From: an uncultured Candidatus Saccharibacteria bacterium
Lineage (GTDB): Bacteria; Patescibacteriota; Saccharimonadia; Saccharimonadales; JAGQNJ01
Direction: 5' to 3'
Length of the DNA stretch: 64,000 nucleotides
Assembly (NCBI GenBank): GCA_964584895.1
Contig: CAZPAW010000001.1
Span: 270,183 to 334,182, forward strand
Both the position numbers and the translations under genes were made by a program. Positions 25,028 through 48,127 of the stretch are shown here, in pieces; the first letter of the stretch is position 1, and every line of letters begins with the position of its first letter. The notes beneath the pieces were generated by a model. It saw only the letters and a list, made by a program, of their open reading frames with translations, had not been told where the DNA came from and made no database searches.

Positions 25028-25177
25028 AAGATATATATTATAGCATCAACTATATCAAGTGTCAATCTATTTTGATATGTACTATTTTGCCTGGGTACAG
25101 TTTTTTAGTAATCCATAGATTTAAGAATCAAAATACTTTCTGGTACTGCTATTTTTTATCTGTTAAAATAGTTGAGT

Positions 25178-25193
25178 TCGGGGTATGGCGCAG
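25178..25193 (+). repeat. 16-nt duplicate of the tRNA-Pro 5' end
   Basis: TCGGGGTATGGCGCAG is identical to 25284..25299. It lies 106 nt upstream of the real gene and is followed by a 12-bp hairpin ATGAGACAAACC/GGTTTTTCTCAT. Confidence 0.8.
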
Positions 25194-25284
25194 CTCTAAT
25201 GAGACAAACCTAAGGTTTTTCTCATCGCGCCGGCAAAATGGAATACATTTTAGTCGGGCTGCTCTTTTCCGAACAGCCTTTAAT

Positions 25285-25361
25285 CGGGGTATGGCGCAGT
25301 TGGCTAGCGCGCGCGGTTTGGGACCGCGAGGTCGCAGGTTCGAGTCCTGCTACCCCGACCA
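25285..25361 (+). tRNA. tRNA-Pro (UGG)
   Basis: Manual cloverleaf: acceptor CGGGGTA/TACCCCG, D stem GCGC/GCGC, anticodon stem CGCGG/CCGCG, loop TTTGGGA, T arm GCAGG-TTCGAGT-CCTGC, encoded CCA. Confidence 0.9.
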
Positions 25362-37937: not shown

Positions 37938-38043
37938 GATTACTCTGAAAATTATTAGTTTATGCTGTAGTACAATATAGCTATGATTTGATACTTCACG
38001 AGTACTTAGAAATATTTCTGTTGATGTAAACAAAGGAAAACTT

Positions 38044-39321
38044 ATGATAGACGATGAAGTAAAAAAACTAATACAAAAAGAAGAAAAAAGACAGCGCGAG
38101 GGCCTAGAGCTCATTCCGTCAGAAAACTATGTTAGCCGTCCTGTTTTGGATGCAATGGGCAGCGTCTTTAACAATAAATACTCTGAAGGTTATCCTGGAA
38201 AGCGATACTATGGCGGGCAAGAAAATACTGACAAGGTTGAGCAATTAGCAATTGATCGGGCTAAAAAAATGTTCGGGGCAGATCATGCTAATGTGCAGCC
38301 GCATGCTGGTGCTCCAGCAAATGTGGCTGTTTATTTTGCATGGCTAGAACCAGGCGATACAGTGCTCGGAATGGACTTGAGTCACGGCGGGCACTTAACC
38401 CACGGACACCCGGTTACTACTATGGCTCAACTTTACAATTTCGTTCGATACAAAATGAAAAACGTCGAAACAGGTGAAATTGATTATAACGAAATGTTAG
38501 CAGTTGCTAAAAAACATAAACCTAAAATTATTCTTGCAGGATTCTCTGCTTACCCAAGAGAGCTTGATTATGCGAAATTTAAGTCAATAGCAGATGAAGT
38601 TGGCGCAGTATTGATGGCCGATGTGGCTCACATTGCCGGGTTGATTGTTGGCGGTGTTTTAAAAAACCCCTTTGACTTTGGTTTTCATATCGTGACCTCT
38701 ACAACACATAAATCATTACGTGGCCCTAGAGGGGGCATGATTTTATCAAAGGGAAAAGTTAGCAACCCGCTTAAAAAACCAGAAAAAATAGTCGATAATA
38801 TACCTACTATAATCGACCGAGAAGTTTTTCCTGGATTTCAAGGCGGACCAATTATGAATATGATAGCCGCAAAGGCTGTGGCTTTTGGTGAAGCGTTACA
38901 ACCTGAATTTAAAATATACTCCGAGCAAGTCGTAAAAAATGCCAAACGTCTAGCTGACGAAATGATGAAACGTGGATTTAAATTAATTACCAATGGTACG
39001 GATAATCATCTAATATTGTCTGACATCAATACATCCTTTGGAGTTGATGGCGCAGTAGCGGAACATGTTTTAGATGAGATTGGCTTGACGGCAAACAAGA
39101 ATGCTATCGCTGACGATCCTTTGCCTCCATTTCGACCTAGCGGATTGCGGTTAGGTACGCCAGCAATTACTACGCGCGGAATGAAAGAAGATGATATGGA
39201 ACTTGTGGCTGAGTGGATGCTTAAAGCAATAAATCGTCGTAATGACAAAAAAGCCCTCAATAAATTACATAGCGAAGTAATTGAATTTTCTAAAAAATTT
39301 CCACTACCAAGCGATAACTAG
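38044..39321 (+). CDS. glyA: Serine hydroxymethyltransferase
   Basis: LELIPSENY, GYPGKRYYGG and TSTTHKSLRGPRGG (PLP lysine). Confidence 0.95.
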   Translation: MIDDEVKKLIQKEEKRQREGLELIPSENYVSRPVLDAMGSVFNNKYSEGYPGKRYYGGQENTDKVEQLAIDRAKKMFGADHANVQPHAGAPANVAVYFAWLEPGDTVLGMDLSHGGHLTHGHPVTTMAQLYNFVRYKMKNVETGEIDYNEMLAVAKKHKPKIILAGFSAYPRELDYAKFKSIADEVGAVLMADVAHIAGLIVGGVLKNPFDFGFHIVTSTTHKSLRGPRGGMILSKGKVSNPLKKPEKIVDNIPTIIDREVFPGFQGGPIMNMIAAKAVAFGEALQPEFKIYSEQVVKNAKRLADEMMKRGFKLITNGTDNHLILSDINTSFGVDGAVAEHVLDEIGLTANKNAIADDPLPPFRPSGLRLGTPAITTRGMKEDDMELVAEWMLKAINRRNDKKALNKLHSEVIEFSKKFPLPSDN

Positions 39322-40343
39322 ATAAGTTCGGGTTCTTGTTCTAGGGTGATTCCGTATTTTTGCTCGACGGCATCAACTATTTTATTCTTAAAATTTATAA
39401 CGTCATTAGTGCTATGAGCATTTTCATTGATTATTACGAGGGCTTGCTTTGACCATGTTGCCATTCCAGTATCGTGATCGTGAAAATCTTTGTAACCAGC
39501 TTTTTCTATTAGCCAGCCTGCCGAAAGTTTTACCTTGTTGTCGTCTATTGGCCACGAAACCATATCAGGAAATTTAGATTTTAGTGCCTCGAATTTTGGG
39601 TTGTCTATGATTGGGTTCGCAAAAAATGATCCGTTATTGGCAACAATATCAGGATCAGGAAGTTTTTTTGATCGTATTGCTATTACACCACGACGGATAT
39701 TCTCGGGGGTATATTCAGTTATTTTATTTTCGTCAAGATAACTTTGTAGCGATGCGTAGAATGGTGGCGTTGCGTACTTTTTACTAAGTTTTAGAGTGAT
39801 TGCAGAAATTATGAATCTTCCTTTATCGGATGTTTTAAACCGACTGGTTCTGTAGCCAAATTTGCACTCTGACTTAGGTATATCGACAAAGCCCTTTTTT
39901 TGTATATCATAGGCTCGAATCGATACAAGTGTATCGGCAATCTCCTTGCCGTAAGCCCCAACATTCTGGACAGGTGTCGCCCCTACTCGTCCAGGAATCC
40001 ATGACAGTTGTTCAATCCCGCTAAGTTTATTTTCAACGCTCCACTGGACCATCTCGTCCCAATCTTCTCCGCTAGCAAGCTTCACGATGACATCGTCATT
40101 ATCTACGGAGGCTATTTCATGACCCATGATTCTATTGAGTATCACTAGTCCGTCAAAGCCTTGATCTCGCCAAATAATGTTACTGCCGCCGCCAATTGCA
40201 ATAATATTTTGTTTGTTCCTTGTTGCCCATTCAATTAGTTCGACAAGTTCGGTCTCGGAGTTGGCTTCATCAAAATATTTGGCATTACCGCCAACACGCA
40301 TAGTTGAATAATCTTTGAGTGATACATTTTCTTTTGGGCGCAT
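39318..40343 (-). CDS. murB: UDP-N-acetylenolpyruvoylglucosamine reductase MurB
   Basis: FAD-binding GGGSN motif, C-terminal SAGWLIE and FANP patterns. 4-nt 3'-end overlap with glyA. Confidence 0.85.
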   Translation of the reverse strand: MRPKENVSLKDYSTMRVGGNAKYFDEANSETELVELIEWATRNKQNIIAIGGGSNIIWRDQGFDGLVILNRIMGHEIASVDNDDVIVKLASGEDWDEMVQWSVENKLSGIEQLSWIPGRVGATPVQNVGAYGKEIADTLVSIRAYDIQKKGFVDIPKSECKFGYRTSRFKTSDKGRFIISAITLKLSKKYATPPFYASLQSYLDENKITEYTPENIRRGVIAIRSKKLPDPDIVANNGSFFANPIIDNPKFEALKSKFPDMVSWPIDDNKVKLSAGWLIEKAGYKDFHDHDTGMATWSKQALVIINENAHSTNDVINFKNKIVDAVEQKYGITLEQEPELI

Positions 40344-40393
40344 ACAACTATTATACTTGTTTTTGTCTCAACTATTTTTTAAAATAATAACAG

Positions 40394-40921
40394 ATGAGAG
40401 GCAATAAATTTCCTTATAAGAATTTTGGACAACAATTAAAGCAACTTCGAGAGCGTCAACATGAGAGTATAGCGGAAGTTTCTGGTGCCGTAGAGATTGA
40501 CGAAAAAACACTACAGAGTATTGAGCGTGGCGAGAAATTACCGAGCGAAGATATACTAATGCTACTCGTAAGTCATCTGGGAGTCGACGATAGAGAAGCA
40601 AAAAAATTGTTTGAGATGGCAGAGGTTGGTCGTCAAAGCTCTGAATCGTTTAATCTTGACGAGCAATTTATAAAACAAATGTTGATGATTATTCCTGTTG
40701 ATAACCGTATTCTCTATAGCGATGGAACCAAGATTAATGTTAACAAAAATGGGGTTGTGATTAATTTTCAGCAATCAGGCGATAAGCAAACTTTCCCGAT
40801 TGCACGCATTGGAATGAGTAAAGAACATGCTCGGAGATTTGCCAAAGTCCTAACGGAGACGATTGATAAATCCGAAATGCCACCAAAGCCAAAATTGCTA
40901 TCTGCTCCAAAAAACAAATAA
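40394..40921 (+). CDS. XRE-family HTH protein with unknown C-terminal domain
   Basis: FGQQLKQLRERQHESIAEVSGAVEIDEKTLQSIERGEKLPS is an HTH_3 pattern. Confidence 0.6.
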   Translation: MRGNKFPYKNFGQQLKQLRERQHESIAEVSGAVEIDEKTLQSIERGEKLPSEDILMLLVSHLGVDDREAKKLFEMAEVGRQSSESFNLDEQFIKQMLMIIPVDNRILYSDGTKINVNKNGVVINFQQSGDKQTFPIARIGMSKEHARRFAKVLTETIDKSEMPPKPKLLSAPKNK

Positions 40922-40973
40922 CCAATCTCTAATCTGTTATAATGTGCTAGTTCATTTATTCGTTAAGTGTTAA

Positions 40974-41023
40974 CTAGTTTTTCAAACCAAGAAGTCGATT
41001 CATTCGAATCTTCTGTTTGAAAA
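40974..41023 (+). repeat. Long imperfect hairpin element, copy A (upstream of tRNA-Arg-UCG)
   Basis: CTAGTTTTTCAAACCAAGAAGTC-GATTC-ATTCGAATCTTCTGTTTGAAAA. The arms are shared with copy B at 45233..45296. Confidence 0.75.
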
Positions 41024-41102
41024 ACAAAAAGGAAGAAGCGACCAGAAGATGGAAGAAAATCAAAACTTTGTTTTTCTAAAAGCTGACCGTCGATTCTGAC
41101 GC

Positions 41103-41179
41103 GCGCCCGTAGCTCAGTGGATTAGAGCGCTTGTCTTCGGAACAAGAGGTCGTAGGTTCGAATCCTACCGGGCGTACCA
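41103..41179 (+). tRNA. tRNA-Arg (UCG)
   Basis: Acceptor GCGCCCG/CGGGCGT, anticodon stem CTTGT/ACAAG, loop CTTCGGA, T arm GTAGG-TTCGAAT-CCTAC, encoded CCA. Confidence 0.9.
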
Positions 41180-41187
41180 TTTAGCTT

Positions 41188-41670
41188 ATGCAGAAATACG
41201 TTTTAGTCCACACCTTACAGCCGATTGCTAATAACACTCAATTCTCGATGTCGGATTGGCCGTTACATGTAACACTTTCACCGCGTTTCGCTGTCGATAT
41301 AAAACAACCGAATCTCGTCACTGACCTGAAAAACTTACTCGCTAAGAAAAAGCCGATTAAGACTATTGTTAAGAAAGATGAAAAATTTGGACAAGATCAT
41401 CATATTCTAGTCTCTCTTTTAGAGCTGACGAGCAAACTTTTAGAGCTTCATAATGAAGTGCTAGACTTACTTGAATCATACGGTGCGATATTTGATGAGC
41501 CGAATTTCAGCCGTTCTGGGTATCGACCACACATTACAGTTCAAAAATCTGGCAGGGTAAATAGAGGCGATACAATTATGATTAATAATTTAACGCTTGT
41601 TGATATGTACCCTGAACAAAATATTAAACAACGTAAAATCCTAGAAACCTATTCACTCAAAAATATTTAG
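41188..41670 (+). CDS. 2H phosphoesterase superfamily protein (LigT-like)
   Basis: Two H-x-T/S motifs (PLHVTLSP and RPHITVQK) at the expected spacing. Starts 8 nt after the tRNA CCA. Confidence 0.5.
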   Translation: MQKYVLVHTLQPIANNTQFSMSDWPLHVTLSPRFAVDIKQPNLVTDLKNLLAKKKPIKTIVKKDEKFGQDHHILVSLLELTSKLLELHNEVLDLLESYGAIFDEPNFSRSGYRPHITVQKSGRVNRGDTIMINNLTLVDMYPEQNIKQRKILETYSLKNI

Positions 41671-41718
41671 CATAGTACTTGTTGTGATATAGTTAGAGAA
41701 TTATCAATCAGGAAGCAT

Positions 41719-42495
41719 ATGGCAAAGAAAAAACAAAGTAAAAATAAAGATTATTTAAAACTAGCGTCTATTGTCGTCGCTATTATTACGCTATCTGTAA
41801 CTATTTTTGCGTGGTGGAATCAGTATGATCTACTAAATACTCTTGGTTCTGTGTTTGTTGTTATTGGAGTATCGCTTATTCCGGCATTGTTATTGATGTT
41901 AATTACTTTCTGGATACAAATGCTATTGGACTCCGCTAGACAAAAACGTTGGATATGGTTTGTGGCGATTCTTCTAGGTGATATTTTCTTTGCATACATT
42001 TACTTGCTCTTAAAAAAGCCTCGACTCAATTGGGGGGTATTTAGGGCTGTTACCTGGATTGCACTCGTGTTATTTGTTGTCATGTGGATAGTTCAGTTAT
42101 ATGCAGGGATTTTTAGTCGGATAAATCCAGTAGACTTGAGTAATCTCGAACCAACAGGGCGCCAATATGTGGCAAAAGTTGTGACTAAAGATCTGAAGGG
42201 TTATCAGTATGAAGGTCAAACAGTCTGTAGTGAAATGAAGTCGGATGATAATAAATATTTTTTAGAAGTTAATGGCGGTACAGTGAGTGCTTCTAGCGAA
42301 GAGCAATCAAGGCTGAATTTCAGATTTACGGCGGTAAGCGATATGAATTCGGAGATTTCAGCTGGTTGGCAAAATGTTCAAGAGTCGGAACCAATTAAAA
42401 CTCAATATATTAGCGTGGCAGATTTGGTAGGTGGTCCATCAGAAATTAACGCTGGGCTAACGGGTTGCGAATTAGAGCTCTGGTCAAGCAAATAA
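41719..42495 (+). CDS. Membrane protein (about 5 TM) with C-terminal extracytoplasmic domain
   Basis: Hydrophobic N-terminal half followed by a ~120-aa soluble tail. SD AGGAAG upstream. Confidence 0.45.
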   Translation: MAKKKQSKNKDYLKLASIVVAIITLSVTIFAWWNQYDLLNTLGSVFVVIGVSLIPALLLMLITFWIQMLLDSARQKRWIWFVAILLGDIFFAYIYLLLKKPRLNWGVFRAVTWIALVLFVVMWIVQLYAGIFSRINPVDLSNLEPTGRQYVAKVVTKDLKGYQYEGQTVCSEMKSDDNKYFLEVNGGTVSASSEEQSRLNFRFTAVSDMNSEISAGWQNVQESEPIKTQYISVADLVGGPSEINAGLTGCELELWSSK

Positions 42496-42570
42496 TACAA
42501 AAACTGTAGGTTAATAGCAGTCAATTATTTTTTACGTAATTATTTATTCTAATTGTGAGTTTTCTATTTT

Positions 42571-43170
42571 TTATCGTTTTTTTGGGAATACTTTACTCGG
42601 GTCATAGATTCTCCTTGCTAGTCGCATTAAAAAGCCGCCCCTTCGCTTGCTTGTACCCGCAGATTGTGCGGCTATTTTGTCTAGTTTTTCTTGACTCGTT
42701 ACTTTTTCTGGATGAAGGGCGCCTTCGATAACGTTTCCATACTCATCCAATACTTCTTTTGTCGTTATTGGATTGCATTCGCTAAGTCGATCTTTCTCCA
42801 AAATCGATTGTGTCGTTCCAGTAATTTGAAACAATGCTCCTCCTCTAGGGTCTATCCAGTATTCTGTAGTTCTTTTTTTGTCTCCCGCACCAATGGTATG
42901 AGTAAAAAAAGCACCAATAGCGTCTGGTTTGCCAGATAAACCTCTATAAGTGACTTCAAGCTCGCCTACTGTCCCTCCACTAACTTCGTGGTTGATTGGG
43001 GTTTTCCAACTCGGGTGGCCAAATTTGCCGTAAGCATCCATAGTAGTGCTATTTGGTTTACTCAGTGCATCACGGGCTAGTGTTTCAACGCGCGTAACTG
43101 CGAGTTTTGCTAGATCTTCATGTGTTGGTTGTTGCTCTTGTGTAGGTAATGATTCTTCTGTTTCGTTCAT
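42571..43170 (-). CDS. Hypothetical protein
   Basis: 199-aa ORF with normal composition and a basic C-terminus. No motif recognised. Confidence 0.4.
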   Translation of the reverse strand: MNETEESLPTQEQQPTHEDLAKLAVTRVETLARDALSKPNSTTMDAYGKFGHPSWKTPINHEVSGGTVGELEVTYRGLSGKPDAIGAFFTHTIGAGDKKRTTEYWIDPRGGALFQITGTTQSILEKDRLSECNPITTKEVLDEYGNVIEGALHPEKVTSQEKLDKIAAQSAGTSKRRGGFLMRLARRIYDPSKVFPKKR

Positions 43171-43298
43171 TTTTTTTACGGCTTTCCTTATTTGTTTAAT
43201 TTATTAAATATGTAACTAATCTATACCATGCTTATGCTAAGTCTGTCAATCAACTGTGCGATATTAATCTATTTTTAATAATGATATATTATCGGTGT

Positions 43299-43754
43299 AT
43301 GAAAGTTGAAAGCTTGATTAGAAAATATTTATCACAGTGTCATATGATGAGTCTTGCGACCGTTGATGGTAGCAAACCTTGGGTTGCGACAGTCTATTAT
43401 GCGGTTGACGACGATTTGAATTTGTACTGGGCTAGTCCAGAAGACACTAATCATAGCCAGCACATCAGAAACAATCAAAAAGTTGCGGTCGCTATACCAG
43501 TTGTGCACAAAAAGTCAGAACCAGTCGTTGGTATTCAGATTGAGGGAATTGCAAATCAGGTGAAGGGAAGTGCGAATATTAGACCTATCGCTGATCAGTA
43601 TGCGGTTGAATATGGTTTTAATAAAAAATGGGTAGAAAAATTCTCTAATGATCAGACAAAACACAAACTATACAAATTTTCGCCGAAAAAGTTTGTTCTG
43701 TTTGACGATATTAATTTTCCAAATACCCCACGCCAAGAGTGGATTTTGTCTTAA
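43299..43754 (+). CDS. Pyridoxamine 5'-phosphate oxidase-like FMN-binding split-barrel protein
   Basis: MSLATVDGSKPWVATVYYAVDDDLNLYWAS is typical of the PNPOx-like family. TGaTATATT box 8 nt upstream of the ATG. Confidence 0.6.
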   Translation: MKVESLIRKYLSQCHMMSLATVDGSKPWVATVYYAVDDDLNLYWASPEDTNHSQHIRNNQKVAVAIPVVHKKSEPVVGIQIEGIANQVKGSANIRPIADQYAVEYGFNKKWVEKFSNDQTKHKLYKFSPKKFVLFDDINFPNTPRQEWILS

Positions 43755-44161
43755 TGAATTTATTTGTTTATGGTACTTTATCTTTTCCTGAAGTTGTTTT
43801 TGCATTAACTGGTCAAAAATTTGCTAGCAAAAGAGCGGAACTTATAGGATACCGAGTTGCAAAATTAAAAGGTAAAAAATTTCCTGGTCTAATCAAGAAT
43901 GAGGATAGTATTGCAAAGGGTTTATTGTTTATGGATTTGGACGCGGAATCATTTGAAATAATTTCAAAGTGGGAAGATCCAAAATTCAGCTTAATAAATG
44001 TTGATGTTTTATGTAGTGGAGATACTAAAAAAGTGAAAACTTTTATTTGGAAAGGTGATGACGTAGCTCGGGAAGACTGGGATAGGGAAGAATTCAAAAA
44101 GAATTATCTTTCAGAATATGTTAATTATGACATACCCAGCTTTTTACAGACCATTAAGTAA
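43754..44161 (+). CDS. Gamma-glutamylcyclotransferase (AIG2/GGACT-like) family protein
   Basis: N-terminal LFVYGTL motif. TAATG overlap with the upstream gene. Confidence 0.6.
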   Translation: MNLFVYGTLSFPEVVFALTGQKFASKRAELIGYRVAKLKGKKFPGLIKNEDSIAKGLLFMDLDAESFEIISKWEDPKFSLINVDVLCSGDTKKVKTFIWKGDDVAREDWDREEFKKNYLSEYVNYDIPSFLQTIK

Positions 44162-44223
44162 TTAATTTTAGTAATAGCATGAGCAATTTTCTTTTATGAA
44201 TCAATATTAGATAATTAAACATT

Positions 44224-45165
44224 ATGATGCGATATCTAGACCCGGGGCCACAAGCCACTTTAGACAATTATGGCGAAGTATTAGAATTTTGCGGCAGAGA
44301 ACCTAGTCGGATCGTGACAACGCTCGGGCATTTTGTCGTAAGTCAACAATATAAACCGATCGTTACATTTGAGGAAGGTGCTGAAGACCGCATCGGCAAT
44401 TTACTCGCCGAAGGCCAACAAGCTGATATGCTAGCTAATCATGTATATGGTGCAGATGTAAGGCATTTGCCAGCACTTCTTTGGAGGGAGCCTGTATTTA
44501 AACCTATGATTGGCAAAACGTATATTTTTGGTAAATCAGAACTGACACAAGGCGACGAACTGAGCGATAAACTACAAAGATGGATTTATTATCGTCTTGG
44601 CATGATTCCGTTAATTCGAGGCAAGGATGTTAACGAAGTTATATGGTCAGACAGTACAAAAGCAGCATTTGACAGTGCAAAAGAAGCGGCCATAGATCTA
44701 GGAGCAACTAAATTTGATCAGGGTTTTCACGAGACTATTTTTCCGGAGGGCGAAAGGGACGAATCGCTAGATAAAGGACAGCGCAATCCTAATGTTGTCA
44801 GACCTTTTAAACACGGGTTTGCCGAGATGATTCTACGATCACATGACCCAGCGAATATTTTTATAATTACGCCAGGTTTAAGTTATCCAGAGCTGCCACA
44901 TCAAGATCCTGAAACAAAAAAAGAAAAGCGGGCGAATAAAAGTGCAAAACTTCATCCTGATATTTATATACCACATCCTATTGAAGTTGCTGAAGGACAT
45001 ACAGTAGAAGATCTAGTTGAATTAGCACATTGTTCTTTGGAGACTGCAGTTAAGAAAGCACGTCGAGTCCGTGCATTACGTGAATATGCAGAAGGCTGTA
45101 ATGACGGAACGGTACAAAATGAAATCTATGGCGCAATGGACAATGATCCCGATTTTGAAGTATAA
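44224..45165 (+). CDS. Lysophospholipid acyltransferase (PlsC/LPLAT)-like protein
   Basis: HX4D motif NHVYGAD and an FPEGERD block. Confidence 0.55.
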   Translation: MMRYLDPGPQATLDNYGEVLEFCGREPSRIVTTLGHFVVSQQYKPIVTFEEGAEDRIGNLLAEGQQADMLANHVYGADVRHLPALLWREPVFKPMIGKTYIFGKSELTQGDELSDKLQRWIYYRLGMIPLIRGKDVNEVIWSDSTKAAFDSAKEAAIDLGATKFDQGFHETIFPEGERDESLDKGQRNPNVVRPFKHGFAEMILRSHDPANIFIITPGLSYPELPHQDPETKKEKRANKSAKLHPDIYIPHPIEVAEGHTVEDLVELAHCSLETAVKKARRVRALREYAEGCNDGTVQNEIYGAMDNDPDFEV

Positions 45166-45232
45166 GATATTTTACAATTTCATTCACCTCTGTTAAAATT
45201 ACCTTTGTTGCTAAGTATTTTGTTTATATTTT

Positions 45233-45296
45233 CTAGTTTTTCAAACCAAGAAGTCTTCGCTGTCTAGCGAATTATTCGAATCTTCTGTTTTGAAAA
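45233..45296 (+). repeat. Long imperfect hairpin element, copy B (upstream of tRNA-Lys)
   Basis: Same arms as copy A, with an 18-nt insert (TTCGCTGTCTAGCGAATT) that forms its own mini-hairpin at the tip. Confidence 0.75.
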
Positions 45297-45323
45297 CGAT
45301 TTACCTTTACAATACATCTCAAT

Positions 45324-45400
45324 GGGCCAGTAGCTCAGCTGGTTAGAGCACCTGCCTCTTAAGCAGGGTGTCGAGGGTTCAAGTCCCTCCTGGCCCTCCA
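45324..45400 (+). tRNA. tRNA-Lys (CUU)
   Basis: Acceptor GGGCCAG/CTGGCCC, anticodon stem CCTGC/GCAGG, loop CTCTTAA, T arm GAGGG-TTCAAGT-CCCTC, encoded CCA. Confidence 0.9.
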
Positions 45401-45562
45401 ATGAAAAAGTCTCAGACTTTTGGCTGGGGCTTTTTCATTTGTGCCATGACGGTGTTTGAACCCGAGACTGTCGAGGTGAGAATTGCCTGTGGCAATTTGC
45501 AAGGAAATCTTCCGATGAAAACTTGTTTTCAATAGTGAAGTCTCGGGCTCGCCATAGGTGAG

Positions 45563-45586
45563 TCAAGTCCCTCCTGGCCCTCCAAT
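45563..45586 (+). repeat. 24-nt exact duplicate of the tRNA-Lys 3' end
   Basis: TCAAGTCCCTCCTGGCCCTCCAAT is identical to 45379..45402, at an offset of 184 nt. Confidence 0.9.
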
Positions 45587-45624
45587 ACGCTTATGCTTAA
45601 AACAGAGTTAGCGTGCCGATATTT

Positions 45625-45633
45625 TGCTATAAT
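45625..45633 (+). promoter_or_regulatory. Extended -10 box (TGcTATAAT), 6 nt before ATG 45640
   Basis: Consensus TGnTATAAT; the gap to the start codon is 6 nt. Confidence 0.5.
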
Positions 45634-45639
45634 GCTTGC

Positions 45640-46269
45640 ATGAAAGTTCCGGAAATTAGAATAAACCTTGCTTGGCTTCTGTATTACAGTGAGTCGACGG
45701 CACTCGCCGAAAAATATAATTACAAGCTTGAGTCATACGAATATTATTACAAAAAAACAATTGAATATAGAAAAGCTTGGGAAAAATACGAAAAAAAGAT
45801 CATTGATGGTTTGCAATCGGCACTTGGTGTAGAGTTTTATCAACCTGTCATTGACGTTAGCTGTACACCGTACTTTATCCCTAAATCTGACCCATTGATT
45901 ATGAACTTCAACGAAGAGCCAGATCAATTTGTTGACGTTTTAATGCATGAACTTTGTCACGTATTACTTACAGATAATAACAAGCACCAAAGCAAAAGTG
46001 ATGCCCCAACACTTGACCTTATTAATGTTTGGGGTGGGTTTTTTGGATCCAAAAAAGATATGAACATCCTTGTACATATTCCTGTACACGTTCTTTCAAA
46101 GTATGTGTATATTGATATTCTTGGCCAACCATCAAGACTTGAGCGCGACAAAAAAGCTGTAGAAAAATGGGATCATAGTGGAGCGTACACGGCTTCTTGG
46201 GAATATGTTGAGAACCACGATTACAAAGAAATAATTAGACGATTGAAAAAGTCGTACGAAGCAGTTTAG
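45640..46269 (+). CDS. Hypothetical protein with HExxH motif (putative metallopeptidase-like)
   Basis: MHELCHVLL. Tyr/Lys/Glu-rich N-terminus. Start chosen from the promoter position; the track start is 45613. Confidence 0.45.
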   Translation: MKVPEIRINLAWLLYYSESTALAEKYNYKLESYEYYYKKTIEYRKAWEKYEKKIIDGLQSALGVEFYQPVIDVSCTPYFIPKSDPLIMNFNEEPDQFVDVLMHELCHVLLTDNNKHQSKSDAPTLDLINVWGGFFGSKKDMNILVHIPVHVLSKYVYIDILGQPSRLERDKKAVEKWDHSGAYTASWEYVENHDYKEIIRRLKKSYEAV

Positions 46270-46579
46270 AAAAATTAATGAATTTGTGGATCTTTTTCAT
46301 AAGTATAATTTTTAACTAAGATAAAATTAGACTTACTGCTTGGTTAAAAAATAGTTACAGCGTCATCCATGTGGCCCTACATCAAAATGACCTTAGCTAG
46401 TCCGGGGTATTTTCTATGGAAGGCAGTAAGCAAGTCAACTGCTTGGTTTGCGTGGGACTCTAACGGGAGGAGCGTTGTAGAGTAACTTAGCGAGACCGCG
46501 AGCTGAGTTCACAAGTCCGCTGTTTCGTCATAACCACAAGCGTCTTGTTGGGCACTTTTTGTTATGCAATACTATATTC

Positions 46580-47095
46580 ATGAAGAAGAACCAACGAGGT
46601 TTCAGTCTGGTTGAACTTCTTGTTTTGTTGCTTTGTCTGGGGTTGATCTTGCTAGTTGGTTGGTATGCCTGGAATAGATTAAGCCCTTCGACCGATGTTG
46701 ATAAGCCGTCAAACTCCAATACAAGTAATCAAGATACATCATTTTCGATAAAAATTGATCCGATGGTAGGGGGTGGCTTCGAAGGCGCAGTTAATAGTTA
46801 TGAAATTACAGCCACAGGTGAGGTTTTTAACCTAAGAGCACCAAATCAAAGAACTGATGTAAAGAAATCATTACTAAAGAAGATTACGCTGGAAGAAGTC
46901 AAAGAAATTCGCCAGTCTTTTATTGAATCGGGTGTTTTGGATTTAGCTTCGGGATATGGTCCACAGTATGGAGGTTCTGTCTGGACGGTCACTATTAATG
47001 GCAAAGAACAATTTTTTTATGATCAAACATCCTCTAAATTTGACGCCGTTAAAATCAAATTGAAAAAGATACTTGGTGAAGATGTGAGTATATGA
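46580..47095 (+). CDS. Pilin-like protein with prepilin N-terminal motif
   Basis: MKKNQRG-FSLVELLVLLLCLGLILLVGWY has Glu5. Followed by a 140-aa globular part. Confidence 0.55.
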   Translation: MKKNQRGFSLVELLVLLLCLGLILLVGWYAWNRLSPSTDVDKPSNSNTSNQDTSFSIKIDPMVGGGFEGAVNSYEITATGEVFNLRAPNQRTDVKKSLLKKITLEEVKEIRQSFIESGVLDLASGYGPQYGGSVWTVTINGKEQFFYDQTSSKFDAVKIKLKKILGEDVSI

Positions 47096-47144
47096 GCTTG
47101 GTCGCAATCATAATGCATGCAACCTATCAAACCCGGTTATATTT

Positions 47145-47173
47145 AAAACAGAGGTGAAATGCCTCTGTTTTTT
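47145..47173 (+). terminator. Intrinsic terminator
   Basis: Stem ACAGAGG/CCTCTGT, loop TGAAATG, followed by T6. Confidence 0.65.
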
Positions 47174-47189
47174 GATATATAGTTAATTC

Positions 47190-47567
47190 ATGAAGAAAAT
47201 CTTTTTAATTATTGCATTCCTGATTACTGGTGGGCTGTTTTCTTTCTTTTCATTCTTGTATGGATCAGTAGAACCAGAGTACGGACCACCCACGGGAAGT
47301 GATATTACTTGCCAAAGCCTTGCACTAAGACCAAATGACCTGAGAGAAATAACTTACTCACGCGGATTTCCAATACAAAAGTCCGACACCATCCAATTTG
47401 ATATCGTGTGTGGTTATGCGAGTAAATATGTACCTTCGCCTGGTGAGATTGCTAGAAGTTGGCAATTATATGCAAACTGGGTTATCTACGCATTTCTGTT
47501 TACTAGCGTAGCTTTTGGGCTTAATAAAATTAAGAAGCACAATAGCTCTCCATATCATAAACGCTGA
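47190..47567 (+). CDS. Small membrane protein
   Basis: N-terminal and C-terminal TM helices. 125 aa. Confidence 0.4.
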   Translation: MKKIFLIIAFLITGGLFSFFSFLYGSVEPEYGPPTGSDITCQSLALRPNDLREITYSRGFPIQKSDTIQFDIVCGYASKYVPSPGEIARSWQLYANWVIYAFLFTSVAFGLNKIKKHNSSPYHKR

Positions 47568-47593
47568 AACACATCCTTAGGTCTTTGGATTTT

Positions 47594-47602
47594 TGTTATA
47601 GT
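47594..47602 (+). promoter_or_regulatory. Extended -10 box (TGtTATAGT), 6 nt before ATG 47609
   Basis: TGn plus hexamer; the gap to the start codon is 6 nt. Confidence 0.45.
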
Positions 47603-47608
47603 TTAAAT

Positions 47609-48127
47609 ATGAAAGAAGTCGTTTGGATCTTTGGCAATAGTGCAGCGGGTAAGGAAACTTTTATTAAGTACGCGATCGAGAGCGGTGACAAAGAGTTATT
47701 CACTAGGTTAGGCTGGGAAAATAAAAAAGTAAAAGCAATTTCTGCAAGTATTGATAATATTGGACAGTATGAAAATGATCCAGTTACATTAAAACGTGAT
47801 GACATTCTCACTGAGACTCCACGAATACTAGAGGAGGTAGACGTAGCGCTTATAAAGTGGCAGACGGTAGACACCCAAAAAGGTAGAATAGAAAAACTTA
47901 TGAACTTGTTGCCTAATACTTGGCATAGGATAATTTTACTATCAACACCTGCAAGGGAACTCGAGAAAAGACTGCCTAATAAAAGTTGGTGGGATGATGA
48001 TGACGTCAATGCTTTTATTGAAGAAGAGACAAAAAATCTTGAAGAGTTAATAAGCAGTCTGAAAGATAAGTTGCCTGTTACTAAAATCTCTGGCAATCCG
48101 AAAGATTACTACCAGACTTCAGATTAA
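47609..48127 (+). CDS. P-loop NTPase/kinase-like protein
   Basis: VWIFGNSAAGKETF is a deviant Walker A (GxxxxGKE-T). About 170 aa, the size of a small-molecule kinase. Confidence 0.4.
   Translation: MKEVVWIFGNSAAGKETFIKYAIESGDKELFTRLGWENKKVKAISASIDNIGQYENDPVTLKRDDILTETPRILEEVDVALIKWQTVDTQKGRIEKLMNLLPNTWHRIILLSTPARELEKRLPNKSWWDDDDVNAFIEEETKNLEELISSLKDKLPVTKISGNPKDYYQTSD

Follow-up and report, generated by a model that had tools for sequence, protein, structure and literature searches.

A conserved two-domain RNA element, probably a transcribed 5' leader module, at tRNA genes of Saccharibacteria and other Patescibacteria

The 64,000-nt stretch of an uncultured Candidatus Saccharibacteria genome analysed here (the window; contig CAZPAW010000001.1, positions 270,183 to 334,182) carries, directly before its tRNA-Arg(UCG) gene, an element of about 130 nt belonging to a family of two-domain RNAs that in these ultra-small bacteria lie mainly at the 5' ends of tRNAs. 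Folding, covariation and comparison among genomes suggest that this element is probably a portable, transcribed tRNA 5' module that would be removed by RNase P, that a second copy before tRNA-Lys(CUU) is a decayed one, and that the two copies bound no mobile cassette. The RNA family is real, and is apparently both undescribed and uncatalogued. A search of window positions 38000-48000 against Rfam 15 at E values up to 5 returned tRNAs only, the best Rfam match to the element alone (E 0.51, 18.9 bits) lay below the gathering score of 37, and no description of the family was found in the full-text literature searched, paywalled literature lying outside that search.

The element before tRNA-Arg and its remnant before tRNA-Lys

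A sequence-only reading of the window had drawn attention to two long hairpins with shared arms, one before each of these tRNAs. Exact search of the window placed the 23-nt arm at 40974-40996 and 45233-45255, and the 17-nt arm at 41002-41018 and 45274-45290, where that reading had put them; 0.00 and 0.01 matches are expected from shuffled sequences. The long hairpin of copy A (P1), an irregular duplex of about 20 bp with bulges, folds at −20.1 kcal/mol (z −4.81), a value reached by none of 200 shuffles. The hairpin of copy B is weaker (−14.0 kcal/mol, z −2.03), 7 of 200 shuffles folding equally well, and the 18-nt insert at its tip forms a 6-bp mini-hairpin of its own, as had been proposed. 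The distances from hairpin to tRNA are also borne out, being 79 nt for copy A (tRNA-Arg at 41103) and 27 nt for copy B (tRNA-Lys at 45324). Neither hairpin is an intrinsic terminator, as that reading had already argued; consensus scans of 40850-41250 and 45100-45650 returned no terminator-like site.

Two parts of the sequence-only reading have to be revised, namely the unit as a hairpin of 50-65 nt and the equivalence of the two copies. The hairpins cover only a third of the feature, since conservation in copy A runs 77 nt past the hairpin to the base before tRNA-Arg, and the actual unit is a two-domain RNA of about 130 nt (133 in copy A) that adjoins the tRNA. Its parts follow in the order P1, a purine-rich linker resembling a Shine-Dalgarno (SD) sequence, an irregular hairpin P2-P5 (domain 2), and the tail GACGN. 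Complete copy A occupies 40970-41102 of the plus strand, its last base standing just before tRNA-Arg. Two covariance models were used, the first (R1) being built from three full copies of the source genome, which it rescores at 132-147 bits; copy A reaches 146.5 bits with R1 and 135.1 bits with the second model (R2), and all 134 model positions are matched. Folds and covariation assign P1 to 40977-41025 and domain 2, with its near-invariant internal loops, to 41034-41097. Between them lies the unpaired purine-rich linker with its SD-like core (41026-41033, from counts of AGGAGG matches), and the alignment assigns 41098-41102 to the single-stranded 5-nt tail, beside the putative RNase P site.

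The tRNA-Arg(UCG) gene itself (41103-41179, plus strand) was called by ARAGORN and matches the Rfam tRNA family at 73.3 bits. An HTH-domain gene ends 49 nt 5' of the leader and the open reading frame of a 2H phosphoesterase begins 8 nt 3' of the tRNA; with both so close, tRNA-Arg(UCG) is embedded in an mRNA context. An extended −10-like word of the TGnTATAAT type can be read upstream of copy A (40935-40943, plus strand), and a word of this type also stands 5' of tRNA-Arg(UCG) in two species of the same genus, denoted G001 and G002. It marks a putative promoter before copy A; a two-hexamer scan of the copy A region gave no full sigma-70 match.

Copy B (45233-45297, plus strand; alignment and folding) consists of P1 only, with the tip insert at 45256-45273, and scores just 23.7 bits with R1 and 21.7 bits with R2. 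Because the linker, domain 2 and tail are all missing, copy B is a truncated derivative and not a full member of the family. The 26 nt between its P1 and the tRNA (45298-45323) are unrelated to the full copies in the alignment and represent a residual unstructured leader, which is nearly identical in G001. Upstream lies a promoter-like site (45171-45199, plus strand) made of TTTACA, a 17-nt spacer and TAAAAT with TG before it, giving 10 of 12 consensus matches; its −10 region is kept in G001 and G002. The tRNA-Lys(CUU) gene at 45324-45400 of the same strand was called by ARAGORN and by the Rfam tRNA family.

Distribution, fold and position of the family

Further copies linked to tRNAs, which the sequence-only reading had left to a genome-wide search, were recovered by covariance search in the source genome (903 kb, 39 tRNAs) and in its relatives. 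A pattern search of the whole genome located a third copy on the upstream side of tRNA-Lys(UUU), 3.3 kb before the window begins; among the upstream regions of all 39 tRNAs, that of tRNA-Thr(UGU), on another contig, contained a fourth and more divergent one. A further full copy (61.4 bits, R2) ends at 483, directly before tRNA-Phe at 484. Of the complete copies other than copy A, two lie close to the window but outside it and the third on a different contig, their targets being tRNA-Lys(UUU), tRNA-Thr(UGU) and tRNA-Phe. The source genome holds four complete copies and one truncated copy in total, each ending at or near the 5' end of a tRNA.

R1 matches occur in 50 of 101 related genomes of the order, the source genome included, with up to 12 matches per genome, a count to which echoes of P1 on the reverse strand contribute. 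Of 151 genomes sampled evenly across the phylum, 15 match, 13 of which are labelled only 'same phylum'. The family spans classes of Patescibacteria beyond Saccharibacteria. Two sets of copies were analysed, comprising 92 full-length copies from 40 genomes of the order, which are the best 92 of about 150 listed, and 51 matches outside the order, tallied from the genomes of the phylum sample.

The predicted fold is supported by compensatory changes, for which the sequence-only reading had suggested a search and which proved abundant. RNAalifold applied to the three full copies of the source genome gave 10 pairs with compensatory changes, and in the 92 copies 41 of 42 pairs have changed on both sides. 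Standard pairs fill 91.4% of cells across the 92 copies as compared to 32.7-45.8% when the 3' partners are slid, the pairing counts being inflated by the fitting of the alignments to the model. None of 500 shuffles reaches the observed covariation values, and a 36-row set behaves similarly. The lower helix of P1 (13 pairs) is 97.3% paired with two-sided changes at all 13, and helices 5-8, which belong to domain 2, are paired at 90-99% with two-sided changes at every pair.

The unpaired parts are conserved as well. A match of 4 nt or more to AGGAGG is present in the linker of 84 of the 92 copies in the order and of 50 of the 51 outside it, and one of 5-6 nt in 18 and 36 copies, respectively. 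The tail is 5 nt long in every copy of both sets (92/92 and 51/51), its GACG core is more than 90% conserved, and the core of the element is near-invariant across classes. Three additional features were considered and discarded. A helix P0 between the U/G-rich 5' flank and the GACGN tail has no supporting covariation on inspection, without a formal count, the flank being loose and the tail invariant; an alternative CGUC/GACG hairpin that would sequester the tail is not kept in the variant copies L032, L035 and L037; and a small open reading frame in domain 2 is not conserved, as its frame differs between copy A and copy C.

The position of the element follows a clear rule in the order. The tail end adjoins the 5' end of a tRNA in sense in 66 of the 92 copies, 59 of them without a gap, and 27 anticodon types are represented. 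One copy faces a tRNA 3' end in antisense, five lie 37-122 nt from a tRNA, and 20 have no tRNA within 400 nt. Among the latter 25 exceptions, five are cut by contig ends, three adjoin transfer-messenger RNA (tmRNA), and a few are unexplained. Two others sit just before the SD sequence and start codon of an Hsp20 gene, a link that does not extend to the source genome, whose Hsp20 orthologue is without a leader. At least seven exceptions are followed by an 8-21-nt copy of the 5' end of their own tRNA (a stub), then by 80-190 nt of other sequence and then by that tRNA intact. On the upstream side, a promoter-associated word, CYCYTGT, is present within 100 nt of 17 of the 92 copies and in 26 of 2000 random windows, and a same-strand tRNA lies at most 190 nt upstream in eight copies, within 25 nt in five of them.

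Outside the order, 27 of the 51 copies adjoin a tRNA 5' end in sense, 13 face a tRNA 3' end in antisense, two are distant from a tRNA and nine have no tRNA nearby. In most antisense copies the complement of CCA comes next to the tail. The ratio of G-U to A-C combinations on the element's own strand is 24 to 4 in antisense copies and 36 to 9 in sense copies; this excess, a count biased by the selection of hits, argues that the element's own strand may be the selected one. The possibility that antisense copies serve as 5' untranslated regions of genes beyond the tRNA was discarded, as a plausible open reading frame was present in one of 10 examined. In other classes of the phylum, some tRNAs have inverted copies of the element on their two sides, and two head-to-head copies make up the whole of certain spacers between tRNAs (L239 in genome G163, L242 in G136, L263 in G109).

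Among the nine copies without a tRNA, four contact the start codon of an MraZ, L3, L23 or L32 gene (Pfam support), codon and tail overlapping by 0-2 nt. Two precede other open reading frames by 6-11 nt, one adjoins tmRNA, one is followed by a tRNA stub, and one (L258) by unidentifiable sequence.

Turnover of the element and the intervening gene block

Comparison with the two congeners reveals a rapid exchange of loci. At tRNA-Arg, G001 has the same −10 word followed by 9 nt and the tRNA, the leader being absent, and in G002 the start of P1 is fused to the last 14 nt of the element by an internal deletion. Copy B is truncated in G001 in the same way as in the source genome. The tRNA-Lys locus of G002 has a degenerate full element whose end meets a tRNA-Lys stub of 11 nt, the real tRNA lying 190 nt further downstream. 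The sets of targets also differ: Arg-UCG, Lys-UUU and Thr-UGU (R1) and Phe (R2) in the source genome; Thr-UGU, Glu-UUC and a half-tRNA stub in G001 (R1); and Gly-GCC (at which the contig ends inside the tRNA), Tyr, Ser-GGA, Met, a stub locus shared with its congener, a Lys-CUU stub and one further match in G002 (R1).

Sequence identity was compared between the element and its flanks. Copy A is identical at 118 of 135 positions (87%) to the copy before tRNA-Gly in G002, the flanks being 61% and 50% identical. The tRNA-Thr copy is identical at all 134 positions between the source genome and G001, with flanks at 85% and 89%, which points to constraint on the element. The stub locus shared by G001 and G002 shows 74% identity in the element and full identity in the 100 nt downstream. 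When each of the 92 copies was compared to its nearest neighbour, the neighbour was in the same genome in 12 cases (shuffle mean 2.3, maximum 10) and had the same target in 13 (shuffle mean 3.3, maximum 12); in 67 it shared neither genome nor target. The module is portable, close relatives having it before different tRNAs, and is dispensable for any single tRNA.

Such behaviour could be that of a selfish or mobile module that copies itself to gene boundaries and keeps its structure for the sake of spread, with no gain to the host. This explanation draws on the patchy occurrence in the order, on the largely different tRNAs that carry the element in three congeneric species, on the precise absence of the leader at tRNA-Arg in G001, and on a nearest relative of copy A that stands at a non-orthologous locus of G002. 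The 67 copies whose nearest neighbour shares neither genome nor target, the tRNA 5' stubs after some copies, and the occurrence of both orientations at tRNA ends, always with the same end of the element toward the gene, point in the same direction. However, terminal inverted repeats and a fixed target duplication are both lacking, the divergence among copies of one genome rules out a recent burst, and the tRNA-Thr copy is 100% conserved between species despite its diverged flanks. The source genome also has no match to a Y1/RAYT transposase or to TnpB, which disposes of a TnpB/omega-RNA-like or IS200/605-type element there, and reverse transcriptase is not associated with the element (13 of 50 genomes with it and 12 of 51 without it), so that retro-mobility was set aside. 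Carriage by phages was likewise dismissed, since the strict two-block pattern found no match in viral contigs; a 17-mer scan of contigs gave mostly chance matches, the true ones being in Saccharibacteria records. A selfish or mobile module is considered improbable. One reverse-transcriptase gene, in two adjacent matched pieces, was noted upstream of tRNA-Ser(UGA) in the source genome (G000:C1:103604-104369).

Elements of the REP/REPIN, MITE or attC type, of which the sequence-only reading had named REP/MITE-like repeats as a possibility, resemble the family as repeated, hairpin-forming intergenic elements of patchy occurrence with turnover between loci. The family differs from them in its few copies, in one particular end that is always placed at a gene start or 3' end, in strong conservation and covariation across classes, and in the lack of a RAYT/Y1 match in the source genome and of any cassette structure. 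With five copies there, all at tRNA 5' ends, the REP/MITE comparison fits poorly.

The same reading had treated the two hairpins as brackets around a 4.2-kb block of accessory genes. The six genes between the two tRNAs (41188-45165) were identified by it correctly in four cases according to Pfam (2H/2'-5' RNA ligase superfamily, PNPOx, GGACT and acyltransferase), and the other two gave no Pfam match. Synteny and Pfam content describe this block as genomic context and not as a bounded cassette. G001 and G002 keep the region from tRNA-Arg to about 43721 (41098-43721), with the first 2.6 kb or so of the block, and lack only about 43721-45186, after which copy B and tRNA-Lys follow in both. The segment 43721-45186 lies close before the tRNA-Lys promoter and comprises the GGACT-like gene and that of the acyltransferase. 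It is present in the source genome and unmatched in both congeners; on this synteny it is best regarded as a small strain-specific insertion.

These comparisons bear on two proposals of the sequence-only reading, in which the hairpin alone would be an RNase III processing stem or the pair would be recombination sites bracketing an accessory cassette. P1 is indeed an irregular duplex of about 20 bp, tRNA-Arg lies among protein-coding genes without a terminator, and the content of the block does vary between species. However, conservation extends well beyond the hairpin, the variable segment has its breakpoints at about 43721 and 45186 and not at the two hairpins, the leader is gained or lost independently of the block, and copies elsewhere are single and do not form bracketing pairs. 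Recombination sites of the attC or att type are likewise not indicated, as the block is not present or absent as a unit in G001 and G002, no search for an integrase having been made. The cassette or recombination-site reading is rejected on the gene order seen in the congeners, and the RNase III and cassette proposals together are regarded as highly improbable.

Some loci combine stubs and repeats without a full leader. A ~100-nt element lies 3' of tRNA-Lys(CUU) in the window (45401-45590) and is followed by a duplicate of the last ~25 nt of the tRNA at about 45560-45586; the same ~100-nt element occurs in the source genome upstream of tRNAs Ser-GGA, Glu-CUC, Met and Arg-GCG and of two tRNAs for Gln. 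Window positions 25159-25299 hold a promoter-like word (TCTGTTAAAAT), a 15-nt copy of the 5' end of tRNA-Pro (25178-25192), a hairpin-rich spacer of ~92 nt, and intact tRNA-Pro at 25285, a stub-spacer-tRNA layout without the leader. The tRNA-Met locus of the source genome (G000:C1:222560-222730; L230, 1330-1500) shows a promoter, a small hairpin, the tail word of the leader and a tRNA-Met stub of 13-15 nt, followed by the ~100-nt repeat and the intact tRNA, and the matching locus in G001 and G002 has a full leader and a 36-nt half-tRNA.

Possible functions of the module

Since the element lies directly 5' of the tRNA and downstream of a promoter or of another tRNA, transcription would make it the 5' leader of the pre-tRNA, from which RNase P cleavage at position +1 of the tRNA would release it. 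Both RNase P RNA (254 bits) and RnpA are present in the source genome, which disposes of the idea that the element replaces RNase P. The RNase P RNA (G000:C4:7769-8102, L042) is of type A and has a deletion at the L15 segment, which binds the CCA end of tRNA. This agrees with PMC8172020, which reports that many RNase P RNAs of the candidate phyla radiation (CPR) are without the L15 CCA-binding motif.

As regards function, the preferred but tentative proposal is a cis-acting 5' module by which the primary transcript is protected or organised. Its stable structure at the 5' end, together with an SD-like site for the binding of 30S subunits, might keep RNase J, a 5'-to-3' exonuclease, at bay until the RNA that follows has been matured. 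RNase J is present in the source genome (478 bits against a cut-off of 400 bits), and the SD-like core is found in 84 of the 92 copies. A known stabiliser, STAB-SD, is an untranslated SD sequence that binds 30S subunits and blocks RNase J1, as stated in PMC4113751; PMC4113751 and PMC5737220 indicate that a 5' stabiliser of this kind works on whatever RNA lies 3' of it. The family shares with STAB-SD and the cry3A leader an untranslated SD-like sequence in a structured 5' leader and a host with RNase J. It differs from STAB-SD in being a two-domain RNA of 130 nt with invariant loops, located mainly on tRNAs and tmRNA, in its presumed removal by RNase P, and in the copies that lie within tRNA operons or face tRNA 3' ends in antisense.

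The occurrence of the module before Hsp20, MraZ, L3, L23 and L32 genes fits a general 5' module better than one specific to tRNAs. Before the last four genes, the SD-like linker and the start codon are parted by domain 2 and 3-5 nt, an arrangement similar to the split ribosome-binding sites of phage T4 genes 38 and 25, where a hairpin brings the SD sequence near the start codon. With domain 2 folded, the linker of the copies at mRNAs would come to lie within ~4-6 nt of the start codon. Unlike in phage T4, the hairpin here is about 65 nt long and conserved, and the module also precedes untranslated RNAs.

Several observations weigh against a leader with a protective role, besides the inflation of the pairing counts mentioned above. 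The invariant loops and the invariant tail exceed the needs of a simple protective hairpin. The eight copies with a tRNA close upstream are inside tRNA operons and not at a transcript 5' end, antisense copies at tRNA 3' ends cannot act as leaders of those tRNAs, and stubs of 8-21 nt follow at least seven copies.

In a rival reading the element would be a small RNA in its own right, with RNase P cutting at a tRNA, a tmRNA or an antisense 'mirror' tRNA to make a 3' end in ...GACGN, and the released RNA of ~130 nt acting in trans, with a protein or the 30S subunit as conceivable binding partners. The tail meets position +1 of the tRNA without a gap in 59 of the 92 copies and three adjoin tmRNA; the same end faces the tRNA in 14 antisense cases, with G-U over A-C at 24 to 4 on the element's strand. 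The near-invariant core across classes, the loss of the element from a tRNA locus without loss of the tRNA, and the copies between two tRNAs, which would be excised at both ends, are in keeping with it. In the MALAT1-mascRNA and MEN-beta transcripts, RNase P generates the 3' end by cutting at a tRNA-like structure that lies downstream, and the present element likewise adjoins an RNase P substrate directly in a host with RNase P; here, unlike in MALAT1, a real tRNA or tmRNA lies downstream, the host is a bacterium, and some copies precede mRNAs. The 3'ETS-leuZ sponge of E. coli, a functional tRNA-operon spacer and a single-locus 3' element binding Hfq-dependent sRNAs, indicates that a transcribed spacer of a tRNA unit may have its own function after processing, whereas the present element is a multi-copy 5' element with a conserved fold and a phylum-wide range.

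However, copies adjoining mRNA start codons or SD sequences have no tRNA-like structure that could direct RNase P, head-to-head pairs leave no room for a promoter of the antisense copy, and half of the related genomes are without a copy. Searches for a partner gave neither a CsrA match, so that a CsrA sponge was rejected, nor a complementary site in a stable RNA of the genome. Complements of the conserved single-stranded motifs were scattered over the genome, with none at the known tRNA, tmRNA or RNase P RNA coordinates, the rRNA genes not having been located or checked; pairing with stable RNA was accordingly dropped. A small RNA acting in trans is rated as not very likely.

A different explanation, to which a low probability is also assigned, is that of an autonomous 'start-marking' RNA module common to tRNAs, tmRNA and the L3, L23, L32, MraZ and Hsp20 genes. 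Its invariant core could be an active or sensing site. The element might then set the 5' end of the downstream RNA by cleaving itself or by guiding a nuclease, or it might be a sensing platform for the 30S subunit or a ligand, through which the maturation of tRNAs and the translation of ribosomal proteins would be coupled to the availability of ribosomes. Such a module could be a bacterial counterpart of the 5'TOP regulon that spreads between gene boundaries, including antisense tRNA 3' ends. No single reading accounts at once for the copies in antisense, the stubs of tRNAs and the contacts with start codons.

To our knowledge, structured and conserved 5' leaders on bacterial tRNA precursors form no established class; the present family rests on more than 140 copies examined, with strong covariation and a range across classes of Patescibacteria. 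For annotation, it explains the long 'empty' spacers before tRNAs in these genomes. An element that touches the functional start of the downstream RNA and relocates fast may represent a new layer of control over the translation apparatus, which would sit in organisms with minimal regulatory repertoires; the alternative would be a new module that seeks gene boundaries.

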